Shown here piece after piece: positions 8,151-47,722 of a DNA stretch of 56,130 nucleotides. The stretch comes from Clostridia bacterium (GTDB lineage Bacteria; Bacillota; Clostridia; UMGS1883), in assembly GCA_045656865.1 (NCBI GenBank), contig JAZOSB010000032.1:1-56130 (forward strand), read 5' to 3'. Both the position numbers and the translations under genes were made by a program. Every line of letters starts with the position of its first letter. Position 1 is the stretch's first letter. Under the pieces are notes generated by a model. That model saw nothing but the letters and a program-made list of their open reading frames with translations, was not told the origin of the DNA and made no database searches.

Positions 8151-9197
8151 ATGAACAAGGAACTTATTCTCGCACTTGATGCACTTGAACAGGAAAAGCG
8201 CATCAAAAAGGAAGTTATGTTTGAAGCTCTTGAAGCGGCGCTTGTTACTGCTTACAAGAAAAATTTCGGTAGTGGTTACAACTGCTTTGCAGAGGTTAAC
8301 CGTGAAAACGGCGATATGCGTGTTTACTGCACAAAGACCGTTGTAGAAGAGGTTCTTGACCCCTTTACAGAAATCACACTTGAAGAAGCACAGTCAATAA
8401 ATAAGCGTTATGCTATCGGTGACAGTGTTGATTTTGAAGCAACTCCTGCCAAATTCGGCAGAATTGCAGCACAGACAGCAAAGCAGATGGTTGTACAGAA
8501 AATCCGCGAGGCAGAACGTGGAAATATGTATGATGAATACAGCGACAAGGAAAATGACGTTATGAGCGGTAAGGTTGAAAAGCTTGACCGCAGAGGAATT
8601 ATGATTGACCTCGGTACTGCGGAGGCACTTCTTGCTCCCTCCGAGCAGATTCCCGGTGAAGATTACACCCCCGGCAGAAGGCTTAAGGTATATGTATTTG
8701 AAGTTAAGAAGACCACTAAGAGCGTAAACCTTAATGTTTCAAGAACACATCCCGGTCTTGTTAAGAAGCTCTTTGAACAGGAAGTTCCCGAAATTGCAGA
8801 CGGAACAGTTCAGATTAAGAGTATCGCAAGAGAAGCAGGCAGCCGCAGTAAGCTTGCCGTATTCTCTGAGGACCCCAATGTTGACCCCGTAGGTGCTTGT
8901 GTAGGACAGAAGGGTATCCGCGTGGCAGGAATTGTTCAGGAGCTTAACGACGAAAAGATTGACGTTATCCAGTACAGTGAGGACCCTGCAGAATATATCA
9001 GCGCAGCTCTCAATCCTGCAAAGGTATTAAGCGTTGAAATCGATGAAAAGAACAAATCCGCACTTGTTATCGTTCCTGAATTCCAGCTTTCCCTTGCTAT
9101 CGGTAAGGAAGGTCAGAATGCACGTCTTGCCGCAAGACTCACAGGCTGGAAGATTGATATTAAGAGCGACAAGGACTATGAGGGGACTGAGGCGTAA
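8151..9197 (+). CDS. nusA: Transcription termination factor NusA
   Basis: FGRIAAQTAKQ, AREAGSRSK, LAIGKEGQNARLAARLTGWKIDI. Confidence 0.98.
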   Translation: MNKELILALDALEQEKRIKKEVMFEALEAALVTAYKKNFGSGYNCFAEVNRENGDMRVYCTKTVVEEVLDPFTEITLEEAQSINKRYAIGDSVDFEATPAKFGRIAAQTAKQMVVQKIREAERGNMYDEYSDKENDVMSGKVEKLDRRGIMIDLGTAEALLAPSEQIPGEDYTPGRRLKVYVFEVKKTTKSVNLNVSRTHPGLVKKLFEQEVPEIADGTVQIKSIAREAGSRSKLAVFSEDPNVDPVGACVGQKGIRVAGIVQELNDEKIDVIQYSEDPAEYISAALNPAKVLSVEIDEKNKSALVIVPEFQLSLAIGKEGQNARLAARLTGWKIDIKSDKDYEGTEA

Positions 9198-9445
9198 TGT
9201 CCACTCCACTCAGAATGTGCGTTGTATGCAGGCAAATGAAGCCGAAAGCCGAGCTTTTGAGAATTACTAAAAAAGATGGGGAATTTTCGGTGGATGTTTC
9301 GGGAAAGCTTCCCGGACGCGGTGCATACATATGCAAGGGAAATGATTGCCGTGAAAAGTTTGAAAAGCAGCGTTCGTTTGAAAGGGCTTTTAAGGGTGCG
9401 TTTCCTCAGGAAGTTAAAGAAATTATAAAAAAGGAACTGATTTAA
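9197..9445 (+). CDS. ylxR: YlxR (RnpM) family RNA-binding protein
   Basis: PLRMCVVCR, GRGAYIC; follows nusA. Confidence 0.93.
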   Translation: MSTPLRMCVVCRQMKPKAELLRITKKDGEFSVDVSGKLPGRGAYICKGNDCREKFEKQRSFERAFKGAFPQEVKEIIKKELI

Positions 9446-9756
9446 TGAACGATAGATTACTTGGTATGCTGGGTATGGCAGTCCGTGCAGGTAAAGTCAG
9501 CTTCGGTGTGTTTATGACCGAAAAAGCACTTAATGACGGGAAAGCCTACCTAGTAGTTGCCGCAGAAGATATGGGGGCAAGTAACCGCCGGAAAATAGAA
9601 GCAAAATGCAGTGAATGGAATACGGACCTTATATTTTATTCTGACAAGGAATCCCTAAGCCGTGCAATAGGTAAAAAGAATGTGCCCGTTGTGGCAGTTT
9701 GTGATGAGGGATTTAGCAAGGCTATCGTTAAAATTTACGGAGGTGTTCAGAAATGA
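9445..9756 (+). CDS. ylxQ: L7Ae/L30e-family protein YlxQ
   Basis: [20 protein letters not shown]; lies between ylxR and infB. Confidence 0.9.
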
Positions 9757-12026
9757 TTGCAAAACAAAAAATCAGCCAGATTGCAAAAGATATAAATATC
9801 CCCGGCAAGGAAATTGTAAAAATGCTCGCTGAAGCAGTAGGAATTACAAAGAGTACTGCCGCATCTTTGGATGTAGAGGAAATGAGCCTTGTAATGGAAT
9901 ATTACACGCAGAAATTTGACGACGGCTCAACTATTGAGGAGTATGTGAACTCTCAGCATGAAAAAGCGGAAGAAGAAAGAAAGGCTAAGGAAAAGGAAAA
10001 AGCTCCTTCTTCCGAAGCTTCCGCAGAGGATGCTCCCGAGGAAGAAATTTCCACCAAAAAGACTGTTCGTTATGTTGACACAAGAACAAACGCAGTTGAC
10101 CTTGATATGCAGCTTGCAAAGGAGAAGGCAGAACAGCTTGCTCCCGAAATAAAAGATACAGAAACAAACAAACAGCGTGTTAAGAAGAACAAAAACAAGC
10201 AGCAGCCTCAGAAGAAGAATCAGCCCAAGCAGCCCGAAATCCAGAAACCCAAGAAGGAGGAAAAGCCCCAGCCTATTCATGTGGTTATTCCCGATACAAT
10301 TACTGTCGGCGACCTTGCACAGAAGCTTAAGGTTGCGGCTACCGAAATTATTAAACGCCTTATGCAGCTTGGTATTATGGCGGCTATTACTCAGGATATT
10401 GAGTATGATGTTGCCGCACTTATCGCTGAAGATATGGGTGCAGAGGTTGAGAGGGAAATCATCATTACAGCGGAGGATAAGCTCCTTAGCGACGCAGAAG
10501 CTCCCGATGAGGAAAAGGACCTTCTTCCCCGTCCTCCCGTTGTCTGCGTAATGGGACACGTTGACCATGGTAAGACAAGTCTTCTTGACGCAATCAGAAG
10601 CACAAATGTTACCGCAAGTGAAGCAGGCGGTATTACACAGCACATTGGTGCTTATATGGTAAATATCAACGGAAATCAGATTGCATTCCTTGATACACCC
10701 GGTCACGAAGCGTTCACAGCAATGCGTGCCCGCGGTGCACTTGTTACTGATATTGCTATCTTGGTTGTTGCAGCAGACGACGGTATTATGCCTCAGACAA
10801 TTGAAGCTATCAACCACGCAAAGGCTGCAGAGGTAAGCATTATCGTAGCAATCAACAAAATTGATAAAGAGGGTGCTAACCCCGACAGAGTTAAGCAGGA
10901 GCTTACAGAACACGGTCTTGTTCCCGAAGAATGGGGCGGCGATGTTATCTGTGTAGAGGTTAGTGCAAAGCAGCATAAAAACATTGATTCACTTTTGGAA
11001 ATGGTACTCCTTACCGCAGAAGTGAAGGAACTTAAGGCTAACCCCAACCGTCACGCAAGAGGTACTGTTATCGAGGCGAAGCTTGACAAGGGCCGCGGTC
11101 CCGTTGCAACAGTTCTTGTACAGAACGGTACACTCCGTCAGGGAGATATTATCGTAACAGGTACTGCAGTAGGCCGTGTAAGAGCAATGGTTGACGACAA
11201 GGGTAAGAAAATTAAGGAAGCTATCCCCTCTACACCCGTTGAAATCGTTGGTCTCAGCGAAACTCCTGACGGTGGCGACCCGTTCTATGTAGTAGAAGAC
11301 GAGCGTGCTGCACGTAACGTTGTTGAAATAAGAAAGCAGAAGATTAAGGATGAGGCTAACAAAGCAAGACAGAGAGTTAACCTTGACGACCTCTTCAGCC
11401 AGATTCAGCAGGGTGATGTTAAGGACCTTAATATCATAGTTAAAGCTGATGTTCAGGGTAGTGTTGAGGCTGTAAGACAGAGCCTTGAAAAGATTTCCAA
11501 TGAGGAAGTACGTGTTAGAGTTATCCACGGTGCAGTAGGTGCTATTACGGAAAGTGACGTAACACTTGCTTCTGCTTCCAATGCTATTATCGTAGGTTTC
11601 AATGTTCGTCCTGATGTCGGTGGCAGAAATGCGGCTGAACTTAACAAGGTAGATATGCGTATGTACAGAGTTATCTACGAAGCTATCGAAGAAATTGAAG
11701 CTGCTATGAAAGGTATGCTTGCTCCCACATTCCGCGAAGCTGTTATCGGTCACGCAGAAATCCGTCAGACATTCAAGGTGAGCGGTGTCGGTACAATCGG
11801 CGGTTGCTACGTTACAGACGGTAAAATTCAGCGTAACTGCAGCGTAAGAATCGTTCGTGACGGTATCGTTATCCACGAGGGTGAGCTTGATTCACTTAAG
11901 AGATTCAAGGATGATGTTAAGGAAGTAAATAGCGGTTACGAATGCGGTATGGGATTTGTGCGCTTTAATGACATTAAAGAGGGTGATGTAGTGGAATGTT
12001 ACATCATGGAAGAAGTTAAGCGATAA
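9753..12026 (+). CDS. infB: Translation initiation factor IF-2
   Basis: [31 protein letters not shown]. Confidence 0.99.
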
Positions 12027-12053
12027 TCGCACATTTTATTTACAAACAAAGAC

Positions 12054-12094
12054 AAAATAAGTAAATGAGGGAAAAACCTCATTTACTTATTTTT
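12054..12094 (+). terminator. Perfect 17-bp hairpin between infB and rbfA (partial terminator or processing site)
   Basis: AAAATAAGTAAATGAGG-GAAAAA-CCTCATTTACTTATTTT. Confidence 0.6.
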
Positions 12095-12111
12095 GAAAGA
12101 AGGGCTATATT

Positions 12112-12453
12112 ATGTCATTTAAAAGAACAGACCGAATAAATGAAGAAATAAAAAAGGAATTAAGCAGTATTATAAGAGAGCTTAAAGACCCCAGAATCCC
12201 CATGATGACAAGTGTCGTAAACGTAAATGTTACAAACGACCTCCGTTATGCAAAGGCGTATATTTCCGTTATGGGAACAGATGAGGAAAAAAATGACGCT
12301 ATAAAGGGGCTTAAAGCAGCGGCAGGTTTTATCCGCCGTGAGGTTGGGAGCCGTATCAAGCTCCGTGCTGTCCCCGAATTTACTTTTGAGCTTGACAGCA
12401 CCATCGAATACGGCGCACACATTAACAAGCTGTTAAACGACATCAGCAAATAA
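12112..12453 (+). CDS. rbfA: Ribosome-binding factor A
   Basis: LKDPRI, DLRYAKAY, AAGFIR, PEFTFELD. Confidence 0.97.
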   Translation: MSFKRTDRINEEIKKELSSIIRELKDPRIPMMTSVVNVNVTNDLRYAKAYISVMGTDEEKNDAIKGLKAAAGFIRREVGSRIKLRAVPEFTFELDSTIEYGAHINKLLNDISK

Positions 12454-12472
12454 ATCCGAAAGGAACTTCTCT

Positions 12473-13423
12473 ATGAAGAAAGTTATAGAACATCTGAAAA
12501 ACAGTAAATCAGTCGCTATATTCGTGCATACAAACCCCGACTGGGACTGTATAGGAAGTGCAATGGCACTAAGGTGTGCCCTCCGCAGCATAGGTATAAA
12601 ATCCGATGTTTTTACGGAAACTCCCCTCTCTAGACATCTATCCATTCTTGACACAGATGTAATTTCCTATTCCGACGGGGTAACTGCACCTGATTACGAG
12701 TGCTACTGCGCCGTTGACGTGGGCGGTATTGACAGAATAGGTCTGTGGGGAAAATTCTTTGATGAAAAGGAAAACACAGTCTGCATTGACCACCACTATC
12801 AGTCGGCTCCTTTCGGTAAAATCAGCTATGTAGAGCCGAAAAGGAGTGCCACGGGTGAGCTTATTTATGAAATGCTTGTGCTTGGCGACTTAGAAGTAAC
12901 ACAGGAAATTGCAAGCTATCTCTACTGCGCAATTTCTTCCGACACGGGGTCCTTGCAGTATGCATCGGTTAACCGCCGGACTTATGAAATTCTAATTGCA
13001 CTTACAGATACAGGGATAAATACTACCTGGCTTTGCAGTATGCTTTATGAAAGGAACACCCTGACACAACTCAAATTAAAGGCAGAGGCAATTGACTCCA
13101 TAAAGCTCTATAAAAACGGTACAATTGCCACTGCAAAGCTTACCAACGAAACAATGGTAAAATACAATGCCGACAAAACAGATGCCGACGCACTTGCCCA
13201 GCTTCCCCGAAGCATTGACGGTGTTATGATAAGTGCATTTTTAAAGGAGCTTCCCGACGGTGACATCAGGGTAAACTTACGCAGTCTGGGAGATTACAGT
13301 GTTGAACCCGTTGCGAGGATATTTGGCGGCGGCGGTCACAAAAAGGCCGCGGGCTGTACCTTTAGCGGTGTTTCCATTGAAGAAGCTGAAAGACAGCTTG
13401 TAGAAGAACTGGAGAAACTTTGA
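12473..13423 (+). CDS. nrnA: DHH/DHHA1 phosphoesterase (NrnA-like)
   Basis: HTNPDWD, IDHH, SDTG, GGGGHKKAAG. Confidence 0.9.
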   Translation: MKKVIEHLKNSKSVAIFVHTNPDWDCIGSAMALRCALRSIGIKSDVFTETPLSRHLSILDTDVISYSDGVTAPDYECYCAVDVGGIDRIGLWGKFFDEKENTVCIDHHYQSAPFGKISYVEPKRSATGELIYEMLVLGDLEVTQEIASYLYCAISSDTGSLQYASVNRRTYEILIALTDTGINTTWLCSMLYERNTLTQLKLKAEAIDSIKLYKNGTIATAKLTNETMVKYNADKTDADALAQLPRSIDGVMISAFLKELPDGDIRVNLRSLGDYSVEPVARIFGGGGHKKAAGCTFSGVSIEEAERQLVEELEKL

Positions 13424-14316
13424 TGAACGATTATTGCGGAATAATAATTTTGAATAAGCCCGTGGGAATATCCTCGCACAAATGTGTGGGAATAGTCCGC
13501 AAGGCACTTGATATGAAAAAGGTCGGTCACACAGGAACTCTCGATCCCGAGGCAAGCGGCGTTCTGCCTATCTTAGCAGGGCCTGCAACAAGGGCTTCCG
13601 ACTTTTTAACAATGGAAGATAAGCGTTACCGTGCAACAATTCTGCTCGGAACAAAGACCGATACCCTTGATATGGCAGGGGAAATCCTCGAAGAAAGGCC
13701 CGTTAACGTGACCGAGGATGAAATATATGCAGTTTTAAAGAAATTCACAGGCGACATAAAGCAGATACCCCCGATGTACAGTGCAATTCAGGTAAACGGA
13801 CAACGGCTCTACCACCTTGCAAGACAGGGTGTAGAAATTGAGCGAGAAGCACGTGATATAACGATTTTCTCAATTGAGATTGAGAAACTTGAGCTTCCCG
13901 AAATAACTGTCAATGTGCACTGCAGTAAGGGTACATATATCCGCACACTTGCTTCGGATATTGGTGAAGCCTTGGGTTGCGGTGGATGTATAAAGGCACT
14001 TAAGCGTACATCTTCGGGAGTGTTTACGCTTGACAAGGCAATTTCTCCTGAGGAGCTTATGGAACTTAGCGAAAAAGGAGAGGTTGAGAAAGCTATTCTC
14101 CCACTCGACTCCTTTTTTGAAAATTATGAGTCGATTAAGCTTGACAAAAAACGTGCCGACCGTGTAAAGAATGGTGTTTCCATTTATTACAGAGGAAAAA
14201 CAATTGGTAATTTTTACCGTGTTTATGACGAAAACGGAGTGTTTATTGCCCTCACTCAAGCGGATATTATAGACGAGCGAGAATGTCTCAGACTTATAAA
14301 GGGGTTTTATAAATGA
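13423..14316 (+). CDS. truB: tRNA pseudouridine(55) synthase
   Basis: KVGHTGTLDP, PPMYSA, CSKGTYIRTL. Confidence 0.97.
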   Translation: MNDYCGIIILNKPVGISSHKCVGIVRKALDMKKVGHTGTLDPEASGVLPILAGPATRASDFLTMEDKRYRATILLGTKTDTLDMAGEILEERPVNVTEDEIYAVLKKFTGDIKQIPPMYSAIQVNGQRLYHLARQGVEIEREARDITIFSIEIEKLELPEITVNVHCSKGTYIRTLASDIGEALGCGGCIKALKRTSSGVFTLDKAISPEELMELSEKGEVEKAILPLDSFFENYESIKLDKKRADRVKNGVSIYYRGKTIGNFYRVYDENGVFIALTQADIIDERECLRLIKGFYK

Positions 14317-15182
14317 AAAAATCTCCCTCTGCAATAGCATTGGGATTTTTTGACGGAGTGCATATTGCACATCGGAAAATTATCTCTCTTACAGTAGATT
14401 ACGCAAAAAAGAATAGCCTTTCCCCCATTGCATTAAGCTTTGACGCATCCCCTATGGAGCTCCTGTCCGATGGTAAGGTAAAATACCTTACAACAAATGA
14501 GGAGAAGAAGAACATCATTGAATCTCTGGGTGCTGACACGGAATTTCTCCCACTCAGCAAAGAGCTTCTTTCTATGGAGGCTGACGCTTTTGTAAAAGAA
14601 ATACTCGTAGATAAGTACAATGTAAAATTTGCAGTATGCGGATATAACTACCGTTTTGGAAGAAGCGGAAAAGGAGATACTAAGCTACTGCAGGAATTGG
14701 GAAAGCGGTACGGGTTTGAGGTTACGGTGTGCGACTGTGAAATTCTTCACGGTGAAAGTGTTTCCTCCAGCCGTATAAGGGAGCTTATTTCCGAGGGGAA
14801 CATAGAATCTGCAAACGAGCTTCTGGGGAGAAGCTTCTCCCTTTCAGGAATTGTATGCGAGGGAAAACAGTTGGGTAGAAAACTGGGTTTTCCAACGGCA
14901 AATGTATTTTTTAACGAAGATACCGTTATCCTTAAAAACGGTGTATATAAAACACTTGTAACGGTGGAAAATGACAGCCACACAGCTATTACCAATACCG
15001 GGATAAATCCCACAGTAGGCGGAGAAGCACTCCGCACAGAAACATATATTCCCGATTTTAACCGTAATATATACGGAAAAGAAATTAAGATTGAATTTTT
15101 AAGCTTCATTCGTGAAGAAAGAAAATTTGACAGTATAGAAGAACTGAAATCACAGATAAAACGAGATATAGACAGGATGTGA
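14313..15182 (+). CDS. ribF: Bifunctional riboflavin kinase/FAD synthetase
   Basis: LGFFDGVHIAH, SSSRIR, GRKLGFPTAN, GINPT. Confidence 0.96.
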   Translation: MKKSPSAIALGFFDGVHIAHRKIISLTVDYAKKNSLSPIALSFDASPMELLSDGKVKYLTTNEEKKNIIESLGADTEFLPLSKELLSMEADAFVKEILVDKYNVKFAVCGYNYRFGRSGKGDTKLLQELGKRYGFEVTVCDCEILHGESVSSSRIRELISEGNIESANELLGRSFSLSGIVCEGKQLGRKLGFPTANVFFNEDTVILKNGVYKTLVTVENDSHTAITNTGINPTVGGEALRTETYIPDFNRNIYGKEIKIEFLSFIREERKFDSIEELKSQIKRDIDRM

Positions 15183-15187
15183 ATTTT

Positions 15188-16030
15188 ATGAAAACAGGAC
15201 TTGTTTTAGAGGGCGGTGCAAGCCGTGGTTACTTTACCGTGGGAGCACTTGACGCTCTTATTGATATAGGCTTTAAGGCAGATTATCTTGTAGGGACATC
15301 TGCCGGAATTGCCAACGGAATTTCCTTTGTTTCAAATCAACGAGGCAGGGGTCTTAAAATCGGACTTGAATACCTTAACGACAAGCGTTATATGGGTCTG
15401 AGACATCTTATTAACCCGAAAAAACGCAGTTATTATAATGTGGATTTCGTCTTTGACGAGCTTCCAAATAAGCTTATTCCATTTGACAGCGAAGCTTACG
15501 ATAAATCAGGGTGCAAGGTTGTTGCCGCACTTACAAATCTTGAAACGGGAAAAAGTGAATACCACACCGTTACAAGTGAGGACAGAAAGTGGAAAACCGT
15601 TGTGGCAAGCTGTGCCCTCCCCATTATGTTTCAGCCCGTAAAACTAGGAAATCAGCTTTATATGGACGGTGGTATAACAGACTCTATTCCCTTTCAGAAA
15701 GCAATTGACGAGGGATGCGACAAAATTGTTGTTATTATCACCCGTGAACGCAGTTATGAAAAAGAGCCTGAGAAAGCACTTGACATAAGCGGTTTTCTTT
15801 ACAGAAAATATTCTGAATTCAGAAAAGCACTCCAAAACCGTACAGAAATGTATAACAACACTCACAACAAGCTGTTGGACCTTGAAAAAGAGGGTAAAGT
15901 TATACTGATTGCACCCGAAATTGACACCTCCGAATGGAAAAGAACTGAAAGACGACCCGAAAAAATTCAGGAAATGTACGATATCGGCTATAATACTTTG
16001 ATGAAGTACAAAGATAAAATAATGGAATAA
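15188..16030 (+). CDS. Patatin-like phospholipase
   Basis: LVLEGGASRG, GTSAG (catalytic Ser), DGG. Confidence 0.9.
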   Translation: MKTGLVLEGGASRGYFTVGALDALIDIGFKADYLVGTSAGIANGISFVSNQRGRGLKIGLEYLNDKRYMGLRHLINPKKRSYYNVDFVFDELPNKLIPFDSEAYDKSGCKVVAALTNLETGKSEYHTVTSEDRKWKTVVASCALPIMFQPVKLGNQLYMDGGITDSIPFQKAIDEGCDKIVVIITRERSYEKEPEKALDISGFLYRKYSEFRKALQNRTEMYNNTHNKLLDLEKEGKVILIAPEIDTSEWKRTERRPEKIQEMYDIGYNTLMKYKDKIME

Positions 16031-16045
16031 AAGCCTTAGTTTGAA

Positions 16046-16106
16046 AGAAAATCGTCATTATATGATCCACCTTTGTGCAGGTGCGGTCACATAATGACGA
16101 TTTTCT
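16046..16106. terminator. Long inverted repeat between convergent genes (bidirectional terminator)
   Basis: AGAAAATCGTCATTAT..ATAATGACGATTTTCT with an inner CACCT/AGGTG stem. Confidence 0.7.
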
Positions 16107-16110
16107 GTTA

Positions 16111-36423: not shown

Positions 36424-37095
36424 ATGGCTGAAAAATACGGCACAGTACCAAAAAAATTCACCAGAGAATGGTGGAACTGGTACTGGATGTACTATAAAGG
36501 AATTACCCTCGGGGTAATTTTTGTATTAATCCTTGTAGGCTTTACCACATACAGTTCTATCACGGCAGAAAAATTTGATGCAACTGTGACCTATGCAGGA
36601 AAGCTTTATTATAACGATGTCTTCAGAGAAAAAATGGAGGAAGTTCTTTCCCCTCTTTGCGAAGACCTTGACGGCAACGGGAAAAAAAATCTGTACTTCT
36701 CACACCTTGATATTAATCCCGAATCCCAGGATGTAGAGTACCTTCAGGCAAATTCCCTCAAGCTCAGTATAGCAATCGGGGAAGAGGCATCTTATATTTT
36801 CTTCCTTGACAGAACAGTTGCCGATTTCTATAAGGGCGAAAATTCAGATGATATTGCCTATGCCCCTCTTGAAGATTGGGTAGACGGAGATATTTCCGGT
36901 TTTGAAACCTATGATGCACACGGCAAGGCATACGGAATCGATATTTCAAACCTCAAATTCTTTAAAGATGCAGGGCTTGACACCTCTGGACTTTATATGT
37001 TTGTCCGCTACTACCCGAGGAAGGACCAGATAAAAGAGCACCTTAAAGGATATGAAGCATCAATAAGGCTGGCAAATAAAATACTGAATTACTAA
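36424..37095 (+). CDS. Conserved single-TM membrane protein
   Basis: WWNWYWMYYK followed by a hydrophobic helix and an extracytoplasmic domain with DLDGNG. Confidence 0.7.
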   Translation: MAEKYGTVPKKFTREWWNWYWMYYKGITLGVIFVLILVGFTTYSSITAEKFDATVTYAGKLYYNDVFREKMEEVLSPLCEDLDGNGKKNLYFSHLDINPESQDVEYLQANSLKLSIAIGEEASYIFFLDRTVADFYKGENSDDIAYAPLEDWVDGDISGFETYDAHGKAYGIDISNLKFFKDAGLDTSGLYMFVRYYPRKDQIKEHLKGYEASIRLANKILNY

Positions 37096-37139
37096 AAAGG
37101 CAGGTGTGAAAAATCGAGTTTTTTACACCTACCTTTTTT
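37095..37139 (+). terminator. Intrinsic terminator
   Basis: AAAAAGGCAGGTGTGAAAAA..TTTTTACACCTACCTTTTTT. Confidence 0.7.
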
Positions 37140-37162
37140 ATAAGCAAATTTTATAAAATGTA

Positions 37163-37191
37163 TTGTAAAATCCCCGAATCGGTGTTATAAT
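37163..37191 (+). promoter_or_regulatory. SigA promoter driving the structured RNA
   Basis: TTGTAA-17nt-TATAAT with an extended TG; predicted TSS ~37197. Confidence 0.75.
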
Positions 37192-37196
37192 AAATA

Positions 37197-37387
37197 TGCT
37201 AAACCAATTTAATATAAGGGTGAACAGGGGTATTTTTATACTCTTTTTTGGTTATACCAATCCCATGAATTTGATAAAAACGCAAATTCTCTTGGATTGG
37301 TATAGTAATATTCCGTTCAATTAAATTGGTTTAGCAACTGACGGGGTTTGCGTTTTTTATGCGTCTGCTTCGGTGGACGCATTTTTT
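37197..37387 (+). ncRNA. Candidate ~190-nt structured RNA or attenuated leader
   Basis: Perfect 17-bp closing stem 37197-37213/37320-37336, nested stems, and a UUCG terminator at 37359-37387. Confidence 0.65.
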
Positions 37388-37422
37388 AATTTTAACAAAA
37401 TTAAATATTGGAGGAAAACATT

Positions 37423-37905
37423 ATGCTTACACTTTATCAGGATACGAAAATGGGTATTGAAGGAGTCAGCTTTACAATTCCAAAAAGTTTTTATATCGTT
37501 GTGGATGAGGATTTCTGCCCTATTAAAAACAACGGACTTGTATTTACCACGCAGGAAAAAAACTGCTGTATTGAGGTTTATACAGAGGAATGCGATGCCC
37601 CTATCACTCTCTATCAGGATTTTATATCCATCCTGGAAGAGGAGAATATGTATACTATTCACGGCGAGATTGAAGAAAGAAAAGAAAACACTTTTTATTC
37701 TGTACGAGCCGAATATGAAAGCAAGCATCACTCATATTTTGAAATGCATATGGTTCGGATTAAAGGCTATAACAAAAGCGTAAAAATGCTGATAACCGTT
37801 GAAAAAAAGGAAACCGACATATGTGACATATTGGGACGTGAAGATGTTACACAGTTTATTAACAGCTTTAAGGCAATTAAAAAAGCAGAAAAAGCGGTCG
37901 ATTGA
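37423..37905 (+). CDS. Hypothetical acidic protein (possible PsbP/Mog1p/DcrB-like fold)
   Basis: GGAGG RBS with ATG at 37423; GVSFTIPKSF near the N-terminus and FINSFK at the C-terminus; no signal peptide. Confidence 0.6.
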   Translation: MLTLYQDTKMGIEGVSFTIPKSFYIVVDEDFCPIKNNGLVFTTQEKNCCIEVYTEECDAPITLYQDFISILEEENMYTIHGEIEERKENTFYSVRAEYESKHHSYFEMHMVRIKGYNKSVKMLITVEKKETDICDILGREDVTQFINSFKAIKKAEKAVD

Positions 37906-37917
37906 CCGCTTTTTTTA
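37888..37917. terminator. Bidirectional terminator
   Basis: AAAAAGCGGTC-GATT-GACCGCTTTTTTT. Confidence 0.8.
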
Positions 37918-41490: not shown

Positions 41491-41580
41491 TGTTGAAAAC
41501 TGTTAAAACTGTTAATAACTCTTGTTAATAACATAAAATTCGGGGTTTAAACTGTTGATAACTTCAATTGTTGTGAAAAT
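41491..41580. promoter_or_regulatory. Cluster of co-oriented DnaA-box-like 9-mers
   Basis: TGTTGAAAA (41491), TGTTAAAAC (41501), TGTTAATAA (41510, 41523), TGTTGATAA (41553) versus TGTGGATAA; AT-rich context. Confidence 0.5.
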
Positions 41581-41666
41581 TCCTCGTCTTTTTTATGTAA
41601 ACCCAAGTTTACATAAAAAAATAATAATAAACTAATTATTGAAACCTATATTTTTACAAATTACGA

Positions 41667-41822
41667 CACAGCAAAGTGACTCCGCCACTGCATCTGCGGT
41701 GCGGAGATATTCACTTTGTTGTGCCATGTGCGTTTTCCGAGCAAGGCGAGGAAATTCTCGCACGGCATAAAATCAAATATTTTTTACTGTATAGGAATTC
41801 AAATTCCTATACAGTAAAAAAG
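41667..41822. repeat. Structured dispersed repeat (MITE/REP-like), copy 2, apparently full length
   Basis: ~93% identical to 1-130; three hairpins including CACAGCAAAGTGA/TCACTTTGTTGTG and a perfect 19-bp terminal stem. Confidence 0.9.
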
Positions 41823-41857
41823 CACGCAACCCTATATAATCCGGATTACGCGCTTTT
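41816..41857 (-). terminator. Terminator of the paaK-ior-ACT operon
   Basis: Minus strand AAAAGCGCGTAATCC..GGTTGCGTGCTTTTTT; its G-U pairs form only on the minus strand. Confidence 0.7.
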
Positions 41858-41870
41858 CCTCATTACATAA

Positions 41871-42302
41871 TTATAATGCGTCAATATCTGCCTGTGTTAC
41901 AAGCTTAACTCCATTCTCCTCGAGAATCTTTGCGGCTTTTTCATTATCCTCAACACGGAGAACTACATAAGCGTGCTGACCTGAAATCGTGATAAATGCA
42001 TAAAGATATTCAACATTTATACTGTTTTCACTCATAAGCTCAAGCACGGAAGAAAGTCCGCCTGCAACATCGGGAATTTCTACACCGATAACCTTTGTTA
42101 CAGAAACAACACATTCATTCTTATGAAGAGCGTCCTTTGCCTTTTCAACATCACTTACAATAAGGCGAAGAATACCAAATTCCTGAGTGTCAGCTACGCT
42201 GAGTGCACGGATACTTACGCCTGCGCTTGCTATGCTCTTTGTAATATCGGCAACTGTGCCTGCTTTGTTTTCTACAAAAATTGATAACTGATTAATTGTC
42301 AT
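41871..42302 (-). CDS. Tandem ACT-domain protein
   Basis: QLSIFVENKAG, IRALSVADT..FGILRLIV, INVEYLYAF; typical partner of paaK. Confidence 0.9.
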   Translation of the reverse strand: MTINQLSIFVENKAGTVADITKSIASAGVSIRALSVADTQEFGILRLIVSDVEKAKDALHKNECVVSVTKVIGVEIPDVAGGLSSVLELMSENSINVEYLYAFITISGQHAYVVLRVEDNEKAAKILEENGVKLVTQADIDAL

Positions 42303-45981: not shown

Positions 45982-47292
45982 TTATTTCTCATTTCTGAGG
46001 TCTAAAATTCTCTTTGCTTTGCCCTGGAATCTTTCAAGAGTCTTAGGGGGTACAAGAGTAATCTTTGCCTGAAGTCCGAGCACACTCTTGATTTTTTCCT
46101 GAATCAGACGGATAAGTTTTTCAAGTTCACCATAGTTTTCAAGTACACTTGCATCCAAAAGCTCAACCTTGATTTCAAGGGTATCCTTGAAGTTTCCTTC
46201 ACGGCGTACCACAAGCTGATAGTGAGGACCGATTTTGTCAATATTGATAAGCACACTTTCAATCTGTGTCGGGAATACATTAACGCCCTTGATAATAAGC
46301 ATATCGTCTGTTCTTCCCTTGGTCTTGGACATTCTGACATGAGTTCTTCCGCACTTACAAGGCTCGTAATCAAGAGTAGTAATATCCCTTGTTCTGTAAC
46401 GAAGCACGGGCATACCCTGTTTTGTGAGGGTTGTTACGATAAGCTCACCAGTAGCACCGCTTTCAAGACGTTTTCCTGTGTCGGGGTCAACAATTTCGGG
46501 GAGGAAGTGGTCTTCTGCAAAATGCATACCATCACGTTCAAAACAGTCACCACTGACACCTGGTCCGCCAAGCTCTGTCATACCGTAGTTATCGGAAACA
46601 TATATGCCAAGGTTTTTCTCGATAGTGTCACGCATTTCGGGAGTACAAGGCTCACTACCCAATATGCCAAGCTTCAGCTTATACGCATCAAGAGGATATT
46701 CACCCTCTTTTACAGCTTCGCTGAGGTAAAGAGCATATGAGGGAGTTGCAACAAGACCTGTTACACCGAGGTCACGCATCATCATAAGCTGTTTTTCGGT
46801 ATTTCCCGAGGACATAGGAATAACCATTGCACCGAGCTTTTCAAGTCCGTAATGAAGACCGAGTGCACCGGTGAAAAGTCCATATCCGAATGAAATCTGA
46901 ATAATATCCTCATCGGTCACACCGCCTGCAGCACAAACACGGGCAACGCAATCGCTCCAGATGTCAATATCCTGCTTGGTATAAACACCAACAGTAGGCT
47001 TACCCGTAGTACCGCTGGAAGCGTGTACACGGACAATGTCTTTATGCGGAACAGCCACCATACCAAAGGGGTAGTTATCACGGAACTCGCTCTTTTCGGT
47101 AAAAGGTATGTATTCAATGTCGGAAAGCTGTTTAATCTTACTTCCGTCACCTACACCAGCTTTGTCGAGCTTGTCGTGATAGAATTTTGTATTGTTGTAA
47201 CAATATGCCACAATATTTTTAAGACGCTCAAGCTGAAGTGCCTCAAGCTCGCATCTAGGCATAGTTTCTATATCTTTCTGGAAAAAGTTCAT
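45982..47292 (-). CDS. paaK: Phenylacetate-CoA ligase family protein (paralog 1)
   Basis: HASSGTTGKP, YGLFTGA, YGMTE, GRTDDMLIIKGVNVFPTQIE. Confidence 0.93.
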   Translation of the reverse strand: MNFFQKDIETMPRCELEALQLERLKNIVAYCYNNTKFYHDKLDKAGVGDGSKIKQLSDIEYIPFTEKSEFRDNYPFGMVAVPHKDIVRVHASSGTTGKPTVGVYTKQDIDIWSDCVARVCAAGGVTDEDIIQISFGYGLFTGALGLHYGLEKLGAMVIPMSSGNTEKQLMMMRDLGVTGLVATPSYALYLSEAVKEGEYPLDAYKLKLGILGSEPCTPEMRDTIEKNLGIYVSDNYGMTELGGPGVSGDCFERDGMHFAEDHFLPEIVDPDTGKRLESGATGELIVTTLTKQGMPVLRYRTRDITTLDYEPCKCGRTHVRMSKTKGRTDDMLIIKGVNVFPTQIESVLINIDKIGPHYQLVVRREGNFKDTLEIKVELLDASVLENYGELEKLIRLIQEKIKSVLGLQAKITLVPPKTLERFQGKAKRILDLRNEK

Positions 47293-47418
47293 TTAAGAAA
47301 CCTTCCTTTCAACATTAATCCATTTTAGTAAATTATATTGTACCATACTTTTTTGGATTTTCATAGTGTTTTTTTGTGTTTTCGGGGAAAATTTGTACCG
47401 ATTCTTGCTTAAACCACA

Positions 47419-47464
47419 AAAAGGCATCTGTTACAAAGCCGTGCTTTGTAACAGATGCCTTTTT
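47419..47464 (-). terminator. Strong terminator of the alpha (rplQ) operon
   Basis: Perfect stem AAAAGGCATCTGTTACAAAGC-CGT-GCTTTGTAACAGATGCCTTTT. Confidence 0.85.
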
Positions 47465-47478
47465 CATTGTTTTAAATC

Positions 47479-47722
47479 AAGGGGCGAAGAGAAAATGATG
47501 CAGAACGGACAAACTGAACCCGAAAGGGGTCACCCGAATCCTCGTCAAAACAAGATATGCAATTGTCGTTTTCTTACGAAAACTATGTTTGCAATCTTAT
47601 TTTGCCTCTTTCCCAAAAAGTCTGCTGACTTTTTGGGAGACCCGCTTTAAATTACAGCGAGCGGTGGAATTTGTTCGTAGCATAAATTCTTTATGCGGTC
47701 TGCGCATTTTATCGATGCCCTT
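47479..47722. repeat. Nested, branched palindromic element (REP/MITE-like) in the rplQ 3' UTR
   Basis: Imperfect terminal IRs AAGGG..AAAATG..GCAGA..ACGRACAAA; inner stems GGGTC/GACCC, CAAAACAAGAT/ATCTTATTTTG, TCCCAAAAAGTC/GACTTTTTGGGA. Confidence 0.6.

Follow-up and report, generated by a model that had tools for sequence, protein, structure and literature searches.

A portable promoter–rod RNA–terminator cassette that looks like a previously undescribed leader RNA of gut Clostridia

Layout of the module and fold of the rod RNA

The locus described here lies in a stretch of 56,130 nucleotides from a Clostridia bacterium (contig JAZOSB010000032.1), the whole of which is referred to as the window. 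It consists of a promoter, a long hairpin-like RNA (the rod RNA), an intrinsic terminator (T2), and an open reading frame (ORF) for a protein of 160 residues, with further terminators at both boundaries (Table 1). The promoter, terminator, ribosome-binding site, and ORF were all found where an initial annotation of this DNA had placed them. Taken together with two further copies, L001 in a Clostridia metagenome-assembled genome and L002 in the database record MT835503.1 (the whole record is denoted L003), the rod RNA looks like a previously undescribed leader RNA of gut Clostridia.

The window promoter, TTGTAA-17-TATAAT, reaches a score of 10/12 and carries a TG extension. P1, the stem that closes the rod, begins 6 nt past the −10 hexamer in the window, L001, and L002 alike, and we infer that the first or second base of P1 is the transcription start. 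The distance from the U-tract of T2 to the ATG is 34 nt in the window and in L001, and about 46 nt in L002, and no promoter was called between T2 and the ATG in the window. With so little space, and no promoter called there in the window, the downstream gene must be transcribed through T2.

The RNA spanning 37197–37390 has a minimum free energy (MFE) of −66.8 kcal/mol (z = −7.78), and 0 of 200 shuffled sequences were as stable, which bears out the earlier proposal of a genuine structured RNA. The fold comprises a perfect 17-bp P1 stem (37197–37213/37320–37336), a TGAAC/GTTCA pairing (37221–25/37315–19), a side hairpin, P2, which includes G-U pairs (37226–33/37238–45), an inner stem, P3, with 12 bp in the fold of which 11 are perfect (37252–63/37294–305), and a 7-bp apical stem (37267–73/37283–89) that closes a 9-nt loop, AUAAAAACG (37274–82). 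All of the stems listed in the initial annotation are thus present. Within the 56-kb window, the P1 17-mer matches only its own two arms when up to three mismatches are allowed. Folded from the + strand, the rod alone is 3.6 kcal/mol (window) or 8.5 kcal/mol (L001) more stable than when folded from the − strand, which fits RNA rather than DNA structure.

Direct repeats of 22 nt, 73% identical and 29 nt apart, relate the 3′ strand of the inner stem to that of P1 (37287–37337), and the 5′ strand of P1 can pair alternatively with the inner 3′ strand (74%; 37199–37305). This arrangement suggests that the rod may have grown by duplication, and would allow slippage of the pairing register.

Table 1. 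Features of the module in the window
Feature	Position	Strand	Remarks
Upstream terminator	37102..37130	+	13-bp stem followed by a T run; ends a gene for a 226-aa protein; left boundary of the module
Sigma-A-type promoter	37163..37191	+	−35 TTGTAA 37163–68, TG 37183–84, −10 TATAAT 37186–91
Rod RNA	37197..37336	+	P1, side hairpin P2, P3, apical hairpin
Region 2 (3′ part of the apical loop and descending strand)	37276..37290	+	Complementary to the linker
Linker between P1 and T2	37337..37358	+	37343–57 pairs with region 2, stopping 1 nt short of the T2 stem
Intrinsic terminator T2	37359..37388	+	10-bp stem (37359–37382), UUCG loop, U6
Ribosome-binding site GGAGG	37410..37414	+	Kept in L001
160-aa ORF	37423..37905	+	ATG at 37423; small family without a name
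Downstream hairpin terminator	37889..37914	.	Shared with a convergent DUF624 gene; right boundary of the module

Replacement of the RNA core between close relatives

A pattern search of genome contigs, combined with protein alignment, gave 32 matches with L001 as the single confirmed locus. Positions 1–7667 of L001 align to window positions 8366–16032 at 92% DNA identity, so the two genomes are close relatives. The module itself is found in different places: in L001 it follows a patatin-like gene, and in the window it lies 21 kb away from the patatin-like gene. The module has different neighbours on either side in the two genomes. The similarity between the two modules begins at window position 37133, just past the upstream terminator, and stops at 37913. 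The unit originally proposed to be self-contained, running from the promoter through RNA, terminator, and ORF to a second terminator, thus recurs as a block at another chromosomal site in a related genome. Since its neighbours differ, either the module moved as a unit or two rearrangements took place.

The two chromosomes are collinear up to the stop codon of the patatin-like gene and then diverge (window 16028–16110 vs. L001 7663–8500). Past this gene, the RNA–ORF module and a convergent 438-aa ORF follow in L001, as opposed to a long hairpin terminator and a convergent gene for a 546-aa protein in the window.

Conservation within the module is strikingly uneven. The window and L001 share 86% identity in the promoter, 87% in the terminator tail and ribosome-binding site, and 93% in the DNA of the ORF, which differs at 4 of 43 fourfold-degenerate sites. 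A segment of 22 nt in the promoter region (37180–37201), which occurs once in each source, is identical in L001. The RNA core (175–192 nt) is only 46.9% identical, compared with a mean of 45.9% and a maximum of 52% for shuffled sequences. Neutral divergence of about 9% cannot bring the core to the level of shuffled sequence, and it follows that the core was replaced.

The replacement did not abolish the fold. In the L001 RNA, a P1 stem starting with UGCUA closes a long rod with bulges, which ends in an apical hairpin whose A-rich loop measures 9 nt; linker and terminator follow, and the RNA folds with −74.9 kcal/mol (z −9.2). In front of the L001 ORF the architecture is kept, whereas the sequence of the core is unrecognisable.

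A third copy in front of a restriction-modification operon

When the module was compared by blastn with a phage collection, one record was returned, MT835503.1. The copy in this record, L002 (337–527), has an extended −10 promoter (TTGAGA-17-TGCTATACT), and its RNA shows a side hairpin, an inner stem, an A-rich apical loop, a linker with the UUUGCGUUUUU segment shared with the window, and a UUCG terminator. The predicted fold (−76.9 kcal/mol, z −8.2) has a three-way junction with the side hairpin, as in the window. With respect to sequence, the L002 core is 59% identical to that of the window, which is above the shuffled maximum of 50.5%, and the comparison of L001 and L002 stays at shuffled level (46.8%). 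The L002 core is thus nearer to the core of the window than the L001 core is, even though the window and L001 genomes are the close relatives. Turnover of the core next to conserved flanks, together with the closeness of the window core to one from another lineage, suggests that cores are exchanged by recombination.

The genes behind the L002 RNA encode a type II methyltransferase (PADLOC, 3e-111) and a DUF262/HNH endonuclease (REase_II, 6.9e-139). The genes downstream of the RNA are accordingly unrelated across the copies, with the 160-aa ORF in one case and a type II restriction-modification operon in the other. A specific partnership between the RNA and the 160-aa protein, as previously envisaged, finds no support here, since the L001 core is unrecognisable even though the ORF is 93% identical, and the closer relative of the window RNA precedes the restriction-modification operon. 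From the three loci, the rod RNA is best described as not tied to the 160-aa ORF.

MT835503.1 (1–49328) was deposited as “UNVERIFIED Bacteriophage sp.”, but it looks like a fragment of a bacterial chromosome. The record encodes AdhE, two Fe-hydrogenases, a Mur ligase, Ddl, isocitrate dehydrogenase, and a PurL-like amidotransferase, as well as RqcH, trigger factor, and ABC and MatE transporters, and no phage hallmark gene was present among the 20 ORFs scanned. It comes from a different lineage than the window, with a GC content of 47% compared with 42%, and has no DNA similarity to the window beyond the module.

A covariance model built from the window and L002 found exactly three sites in the 129 kb scanned, one each in the window, L001, and L003. 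No additional copies came from the other searches: neither the ORF nor either of two distant family members had a tblastn match in the phage collection, the plasmid collection gave nothing for the ORF by tblastn or for the module by blastn, and in blastn against the phage collection the L002 RNA finds itself only and the L001 RNA finds nothing. Nor was the RNA present beside the methyltransferase homologues in H7, H9, and H10, the three records examined out of 11 others, either by eye or with the covariance model (best E 0.77).

Maintained architecture and loop–linker complementarity

The window and L002 RNAs were aligned with MAFFT, and the comparison of all three copies was anchored at the helix bases. 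In the alignment of the window with L002, pairing holds in 84 of 84 cells, compared with 38–50% when the partners are slid, and eight pairs are changed on both sides, five of them in P1; 0 of 500 shuffles reach any of these measures. Across the three copies, P1 is paired at 12 of 12 positions, eight of which vary, every one with changes on both sides, and the apical stem (7/7) and T2 (10/10) are likewise fully paired, but since these helices were defined from the fold of each copy, complete pairing is partly built in. The statistics are best read as showing a maintained architecture rather than strict phylogenetic covariation, and point to selection for pairing and geometry instead of sequence. 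The features that are kept comprise the closed 5′ end, the rod, the A-rich apical loop, and a linker whose pairing with the loop and the descending strand extends to the base of the terminator.

The last of these is, across the three sequences, the most distinctive conserved feature of the RNA. A perfect 11-nt complementarity between the apical segment and the linker (37276–86/37347–57), already pointed out in the initial annotation, is part of a longer match that grows to 15 contiguous bp when G-U pairs are included (37276–90/37343–57; 15 of 15 pairs, three of them G-U). The best duplex in the window, with flanking pairs included, amounts to −19.2 kcal/mol and is equalled by 1 of 1000 shuffled linkers. 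L002 also has 15 contiguous bp (−19.8 kcal/mol, equalled by 3 of 1000), and L001 has 11 contiguous bp with 4 and 7 more (−23.7 kcal/mol, equalled by 2 of 1000), corresponding to a match of up to about 22 bp with gaps. The window and L002 differ in four of the 15 pairs; in every case a single strand has changed, and pairing is still possible. In L001, both strands differ from those of the window and L002, and the pairing is retained. The helix ends 0–1 nt from the foot of T2 in all three copies, and overlaps neither the terminator nor the ribosome-binding site.

After the cost of opening the apical hairpin has been paid, the loop–linker helix is still favourable, with −5.8, −11.9, and −6.0 kcal/mol for the window, L001, and L002, respectively. 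Formed within one molecule, it would be a pseudoknot, which seems possible in the window and L002 RNAs if the three-way junction folds the inner arm back. Pairing between two molecules is free of this steric problem.

The 160-residue protein

The ORF had been regarded as an orphan. It is not one in the strict sense, with 20 unnamed homologues at 52–88% identity and 21 matches at E ≤ 1e-3 among 1.8 billion cluster representatives. The N-terminal sequence MLTLYQDTK is conserved. Neither the 160-aa protein nor 27 aligned family members could be assigned to a significant family in Pfam, NCBIfam, PADLOC, or PHROGs. The only Pfam match of the protein at E ≤ 1 is CryBP1 (16.2 bits, compared with a cut-off of 25), PADLOC gives 0 families at E ≤ 10, and a profile search of the PDB gives one match (E 0.16).

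Leads on the fold come from homologues. The ESM Atlas model of P0017, which is 63% identical, has template-modelling (TM) scores of 0.68–0.72 to PsbP-family clusters, and of 0.68–0.78 to PsbP-type and unnamed clusters, some of which are viral. A feature search with P0005 returned DUF3805, Alr1449, and DcrB at 0.93–0.95 with low counts of shared features, and 1 of the 27 family members has a sub-threshold match to PsbP_2 (E 0.087). We take these matches as a lead, and as nothing firmer, towards a PsbP/DcrB-like binding fold.

The window and L001 proteins are about 90% identical. Six of the 13 amino acid differences in the first 150 codons cluster in residues 127–138 (37801–37836; VEKKETDICDILG vs. 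VGKRKTVIRDILR), and the C-terminal tail is variable across the family.

Comparison with known RNA classes

At gathering thresholds, Rfam 15 recognises a T-box (142–367, − strand, 104.8 bits) and a tRNA (558–637, + strand) in the whole window and nothing else. At E ≤ 10, the region 37050–37500 gives 31 weak rows, none of them 6S RNA, the best reaching 22.3 bits for a family with a cut-off of 50. For L002 and L001 7600–8100, only tRNA and chance-level rows appear at E ≤ 1. The suggestion that the RNA might belong to a known Rfam family such as 6S is hence not supported in Rfam 15. The rod RNA does resemble 6S RNA (RF00013) in being about 190 nt long and rod-like, with a closing stem formed from both ends. 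However, where 6S RNA has a large central bubble, it has a three-way junction with a side hairpin in the window and L002 and a rod with bulges in L001, its sequence is not conserved between genomes that are about 92% identical, and RF00013 gives no match at E ≤ 10; we rejected this assignment.

A riboswitch or attenuator, likewise proposed earlier, is disfavoured because nothing upstream competes with T2 and the junction and loop sequences are not conserved. The best antiterminator partners of the two T2 arms are equalled by 299 and 252 of 1000 shuffles in the window and by 256 and 142 of 1000 in L002. The partner of the 5′ arm in L001 is borderline (25/1000), and that of the 3′ arm is not exceptional (234/1000). 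Since nothing competes with T2, no built-in switch is seen. A ligand-binding pocket was rejected on the basis of the core identities, two of which are at shuffled level (46.9% and 46.8%) and the third, for the window and L002, is 59%. Control of translation by pairing of the leader with the ribosome-binding site and start region was not apparent at any of the three loci, where the best duplexes are equalled by 127, 92, and 69 of 500 shuffles. A leader peptide or type I toxin was also rejected: a 42-codon frame from the ATG at 37196 has no ribosome-binding site, and in L001 the ATG runs into a stop at codon 3.

Several systems share the general layout. The phage lambda PR′ leader (“lambda 6S RNA”) ends at tR′ and is read through with the help of the Q protein. 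As in the module, a strong promoter gives rise to a terminated leader RNA of about 190 nt, and the genes behind it depend on read-through, but the rod RNA loci are chromosomal in Clostridia and have a hypervariable core, and we know of no Q-like gene or binding site for them. The aprE and ermC leaders are 5′ stem-loops that stabilise mRNA in Firmicutes. They have in common with the rod RNA a helix that starts at or beside the first transcribed base, but are short hairpins that are not followed by a terminator or by loop–linker pairing. No description of the motif turned up in the literature searched, although a human-microbiome catalogue of 16,482 candidate RNA models (PMC8040213) may include it.

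Interpretation as a terminated leader

We tentatively favour the interpretation that promoter, rod RNA, and terminator form a portable cassette, which serves as the 5′ leader of the downstream gene and gates it by read-through. Transcription from the extended −10 promoter would begin at the first or second base of P1, and the nascent RNA would zip into the rod, leaving the 5′ end base-paired from the first nucleotide. The polymerase would then reach the intrinsic terminator, which lies 20–32 nt past the rod and has no competitor upstream. Most transcripts are predicted to stop at T2, producing a discrete and probably stable RNA of about 190 nt. Because the space ahead of the downstream gene is too short for a separate promoter, this gene would be expressed solely from the fraction of transcripts that read through. 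In this way, the cassette could act both as a brake and as an insulator for genes that move horizontally. The loop–linker helix may either keep the linker clear of the terminator or join two RNA molecules.

The restriction-modification operon behind L002 is the clearest case of a gene whose dose matters, as the timing and dose of restriction-modification expression decide the survival of a new host. If correct, the interpretation would add a new class of structured RNA in gut Clostridia, one that is portable, positioned before costly genes, and kept for its architecture over its sequence. It would also make it possible to test how newly arrived mobile genes are held in check, and could provide a compact, sequence-programmable expression brake. 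Should the loop–linker pairing be intermolecular, it would add a modest, naturally occurring case in which RNA associates with itself in an allele-specific manner.

A number of observations weigh against a read-through leader. Termination at T2 appears unconditional, and nothing was found that makes the brake regulated. The argument is built on three loci, for which start site, 3′ end, and read-through are predictions, and the L001 match to the covariance model is weak (22 bits, E 0.007), besides the partly built-in pairing of the three-copy comparison mentioned above. The structural constraint could also serve some other function that is independent of sequence. With regard to the loop–linker pairing, its function is something we infer. 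The nested form, in which it would replace the whole rod, comes out 19–32 kcal/mol less favourable and was rejected, and in L001 an intramolecular pseudoknot looks sterically unlikely, given, by our estimate, a straight rod of about 48 bp between tip and base and about 7 nt of spare linker. Genome-wide, the linker pairs with chance sites about equally well, and possible trans targets elsewhere in the window are at chance level only.

The leading alternative is a same-sense, self-recognising regulator. Once terminated, the RNA would act in trans on its own leader in nascent or read-through transcripts, with pairing between the apical loop of the first molecule and the linker of the second, as a feedback device or as an allele-specific “immunity”. 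The CI RNA of satellite phage P4 and the c4 RNA of phages P1/P7 are same-sense immunity RNAs of this kind, which are cut out by RNase P and act via Rho-dependent termination or translation. The resemblance lies in a regulator RNA that is encoded in its own leader and is complementary to the same transcript, with alleles that differ by matched changes. In all three copies of the rod RNA, 11–15 contiguous bp connect the loop with a single strand, and pairing could nucleate from the exposed A-rich loop. Both pairing strands change together in L001, the same copy in which the doubtful sterics of a pseudoknot favour intermolecular pairing, and a core that is wholly different between genomes of about 92% identity, with the flanks kept, behaves as specificity determinants do. 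The difference is that the rod RNA ends at its own intrinsic terminator, and that the pairing spares terminator and ribosome-binding site, the two elements through which it might be expected to act. Furthermore, there are three alleles only, and a literature search gave nothing relevant. On balance, we consider self-recognition of this type unlikely, though worth keeping in mind.

A more elaborate version can be envisaged by analogy, in which the element is a hypervariable identity cassette. The loop would pair with the linker of copies of the same allele, either in antiparallel dimers or between an RNA and a nascent transcript, and would thereby set the dose of a mobile and potentially harmful gene block, such as a restriction-modification operon or the 160-aa gene, with cores recombined between loci. 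This would amount to an RNA-only immunity logic like that of P4 CI and P1 c4, operating in gut Clostridia around an intrinsic terminator. We regard it as speculative and quite unlikely.

Processive antitermination would attribute to the rod a modification of its own polymerase, so that T2 and later terminators would be passed solely by transcripts from the promoter of the module. HK022 put and EAR are RNAs that function in processive antitermination. They share with the module, as do conAn2 and canT, a structured RNA just past the promoter of a mobile gene block and ahead of terminators, and a promoter-proximal structured RNA with a strong terminator directly after it, on a gene block that moves between contexts, would fit such an element. 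conAn2 is a large RNA element with a 238-bp centre between 20-bp inverted repeats (PMC8191782), and canT of Tn916 is a cis-acting structured RNA (PMC11658703). The long inverted repeat that brackets conAn2 has its counterpart in P1. On the other hand, elements that bind RNA polymerase should keep their sequence, and the core of the rod RNA turns over fully, leaving no conserved sequence core. The rod RNA is also much smaller than conAn2 (about 280 nt) or canT (341–452 nt), and no partner protein gene, such as one resembling ConAn1, is present. Finally, transcripts that read in from upstream would carry the rod as well, so that it could not tell promoters apart. Taken together, this makes an antitermination element improbable.

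A pair resembling type III toxin–antitoxin systems, in which the 160-aa protein would be neutralised by the RNA and the terminator would control the proportion of the two, we consider very improbable. Type III toxin–antitoxin loci consist of a structured RNA, a leaky intrinsic terminator, and then the toxin gene. The module matches ToxIN, CptIN, and TenpIN loci in having a promoter, a structured RNA, a terminator, and a small protein gene on one transcript, and in being compact and mobile; T2 does lie between RNA and gene (37359–37388), the gene order is that of ToxIN, and the module is self-contained and has moved. The RNA antitoxin–protein pair proposed in the initial annotation nevertheless lacks the tandem repeats of such systems (0 rows from Tandem Repeats Finder at a minimum score of 30, for window 37100–37450 and L001 7680–8010), and the protein has no ToxN/AbiQ-, CptN-, or TenpN-type match in Pfam at E ≤ 1 and no PADLOC match, the Atlas leads pointing to a PsbP/DcrB-like binding fold and not to a nuclease. 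In addition, the RNA is exchanged independently of the protein, which is still 90% identical after replacement of the core, and a related RNA precedes a restriction-modification operon.

An element acting at the DNA level, i.e., a miniature inverted-repeat transposon, an invertible segment, or a recombination site in which the hairpin is incidental to transcription, would explain the long perfect inverted repeats around about 106 bp and the different sites of the module in two related genomes, but is hardly credible, considering that there is a single copy each in the window, L001, and L003, that G-U pairs let the + strand fold better than the − strand, that its placement with respect to the −10 box and the terminator does not vary among three loci, and that the window rod and the reverse complement of the L001 rod are 49.7% identical, as for shuffled sequence. 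Inversion of the core between the P1 arms was rejected on the same reverse-complement identity.

Other structured stretches in the window

Apart from the rod RNA, two intergenic regions of the window stand out in a scan of MFE over 150 nt, and neither 41576–41925 nor 47376–47675 has an Rfam match at E ≤ 0.05. The stretch 41576–41925 is the most structured of the intergenic stretches (residual z about −5), and holds an A/T-flanked hairpin, a GC-rich compound structure at approximately 41660–41770, and a perfect 20-bp hairpin at 41781–41822. The second, 47376–47675 on the − strand (z −4 to −4.75), is located upstream of a 436-aa ORF (45982–47292), and combines a terminator-like hairpin at 47410–47455 with a structured leader of about 200 nt.

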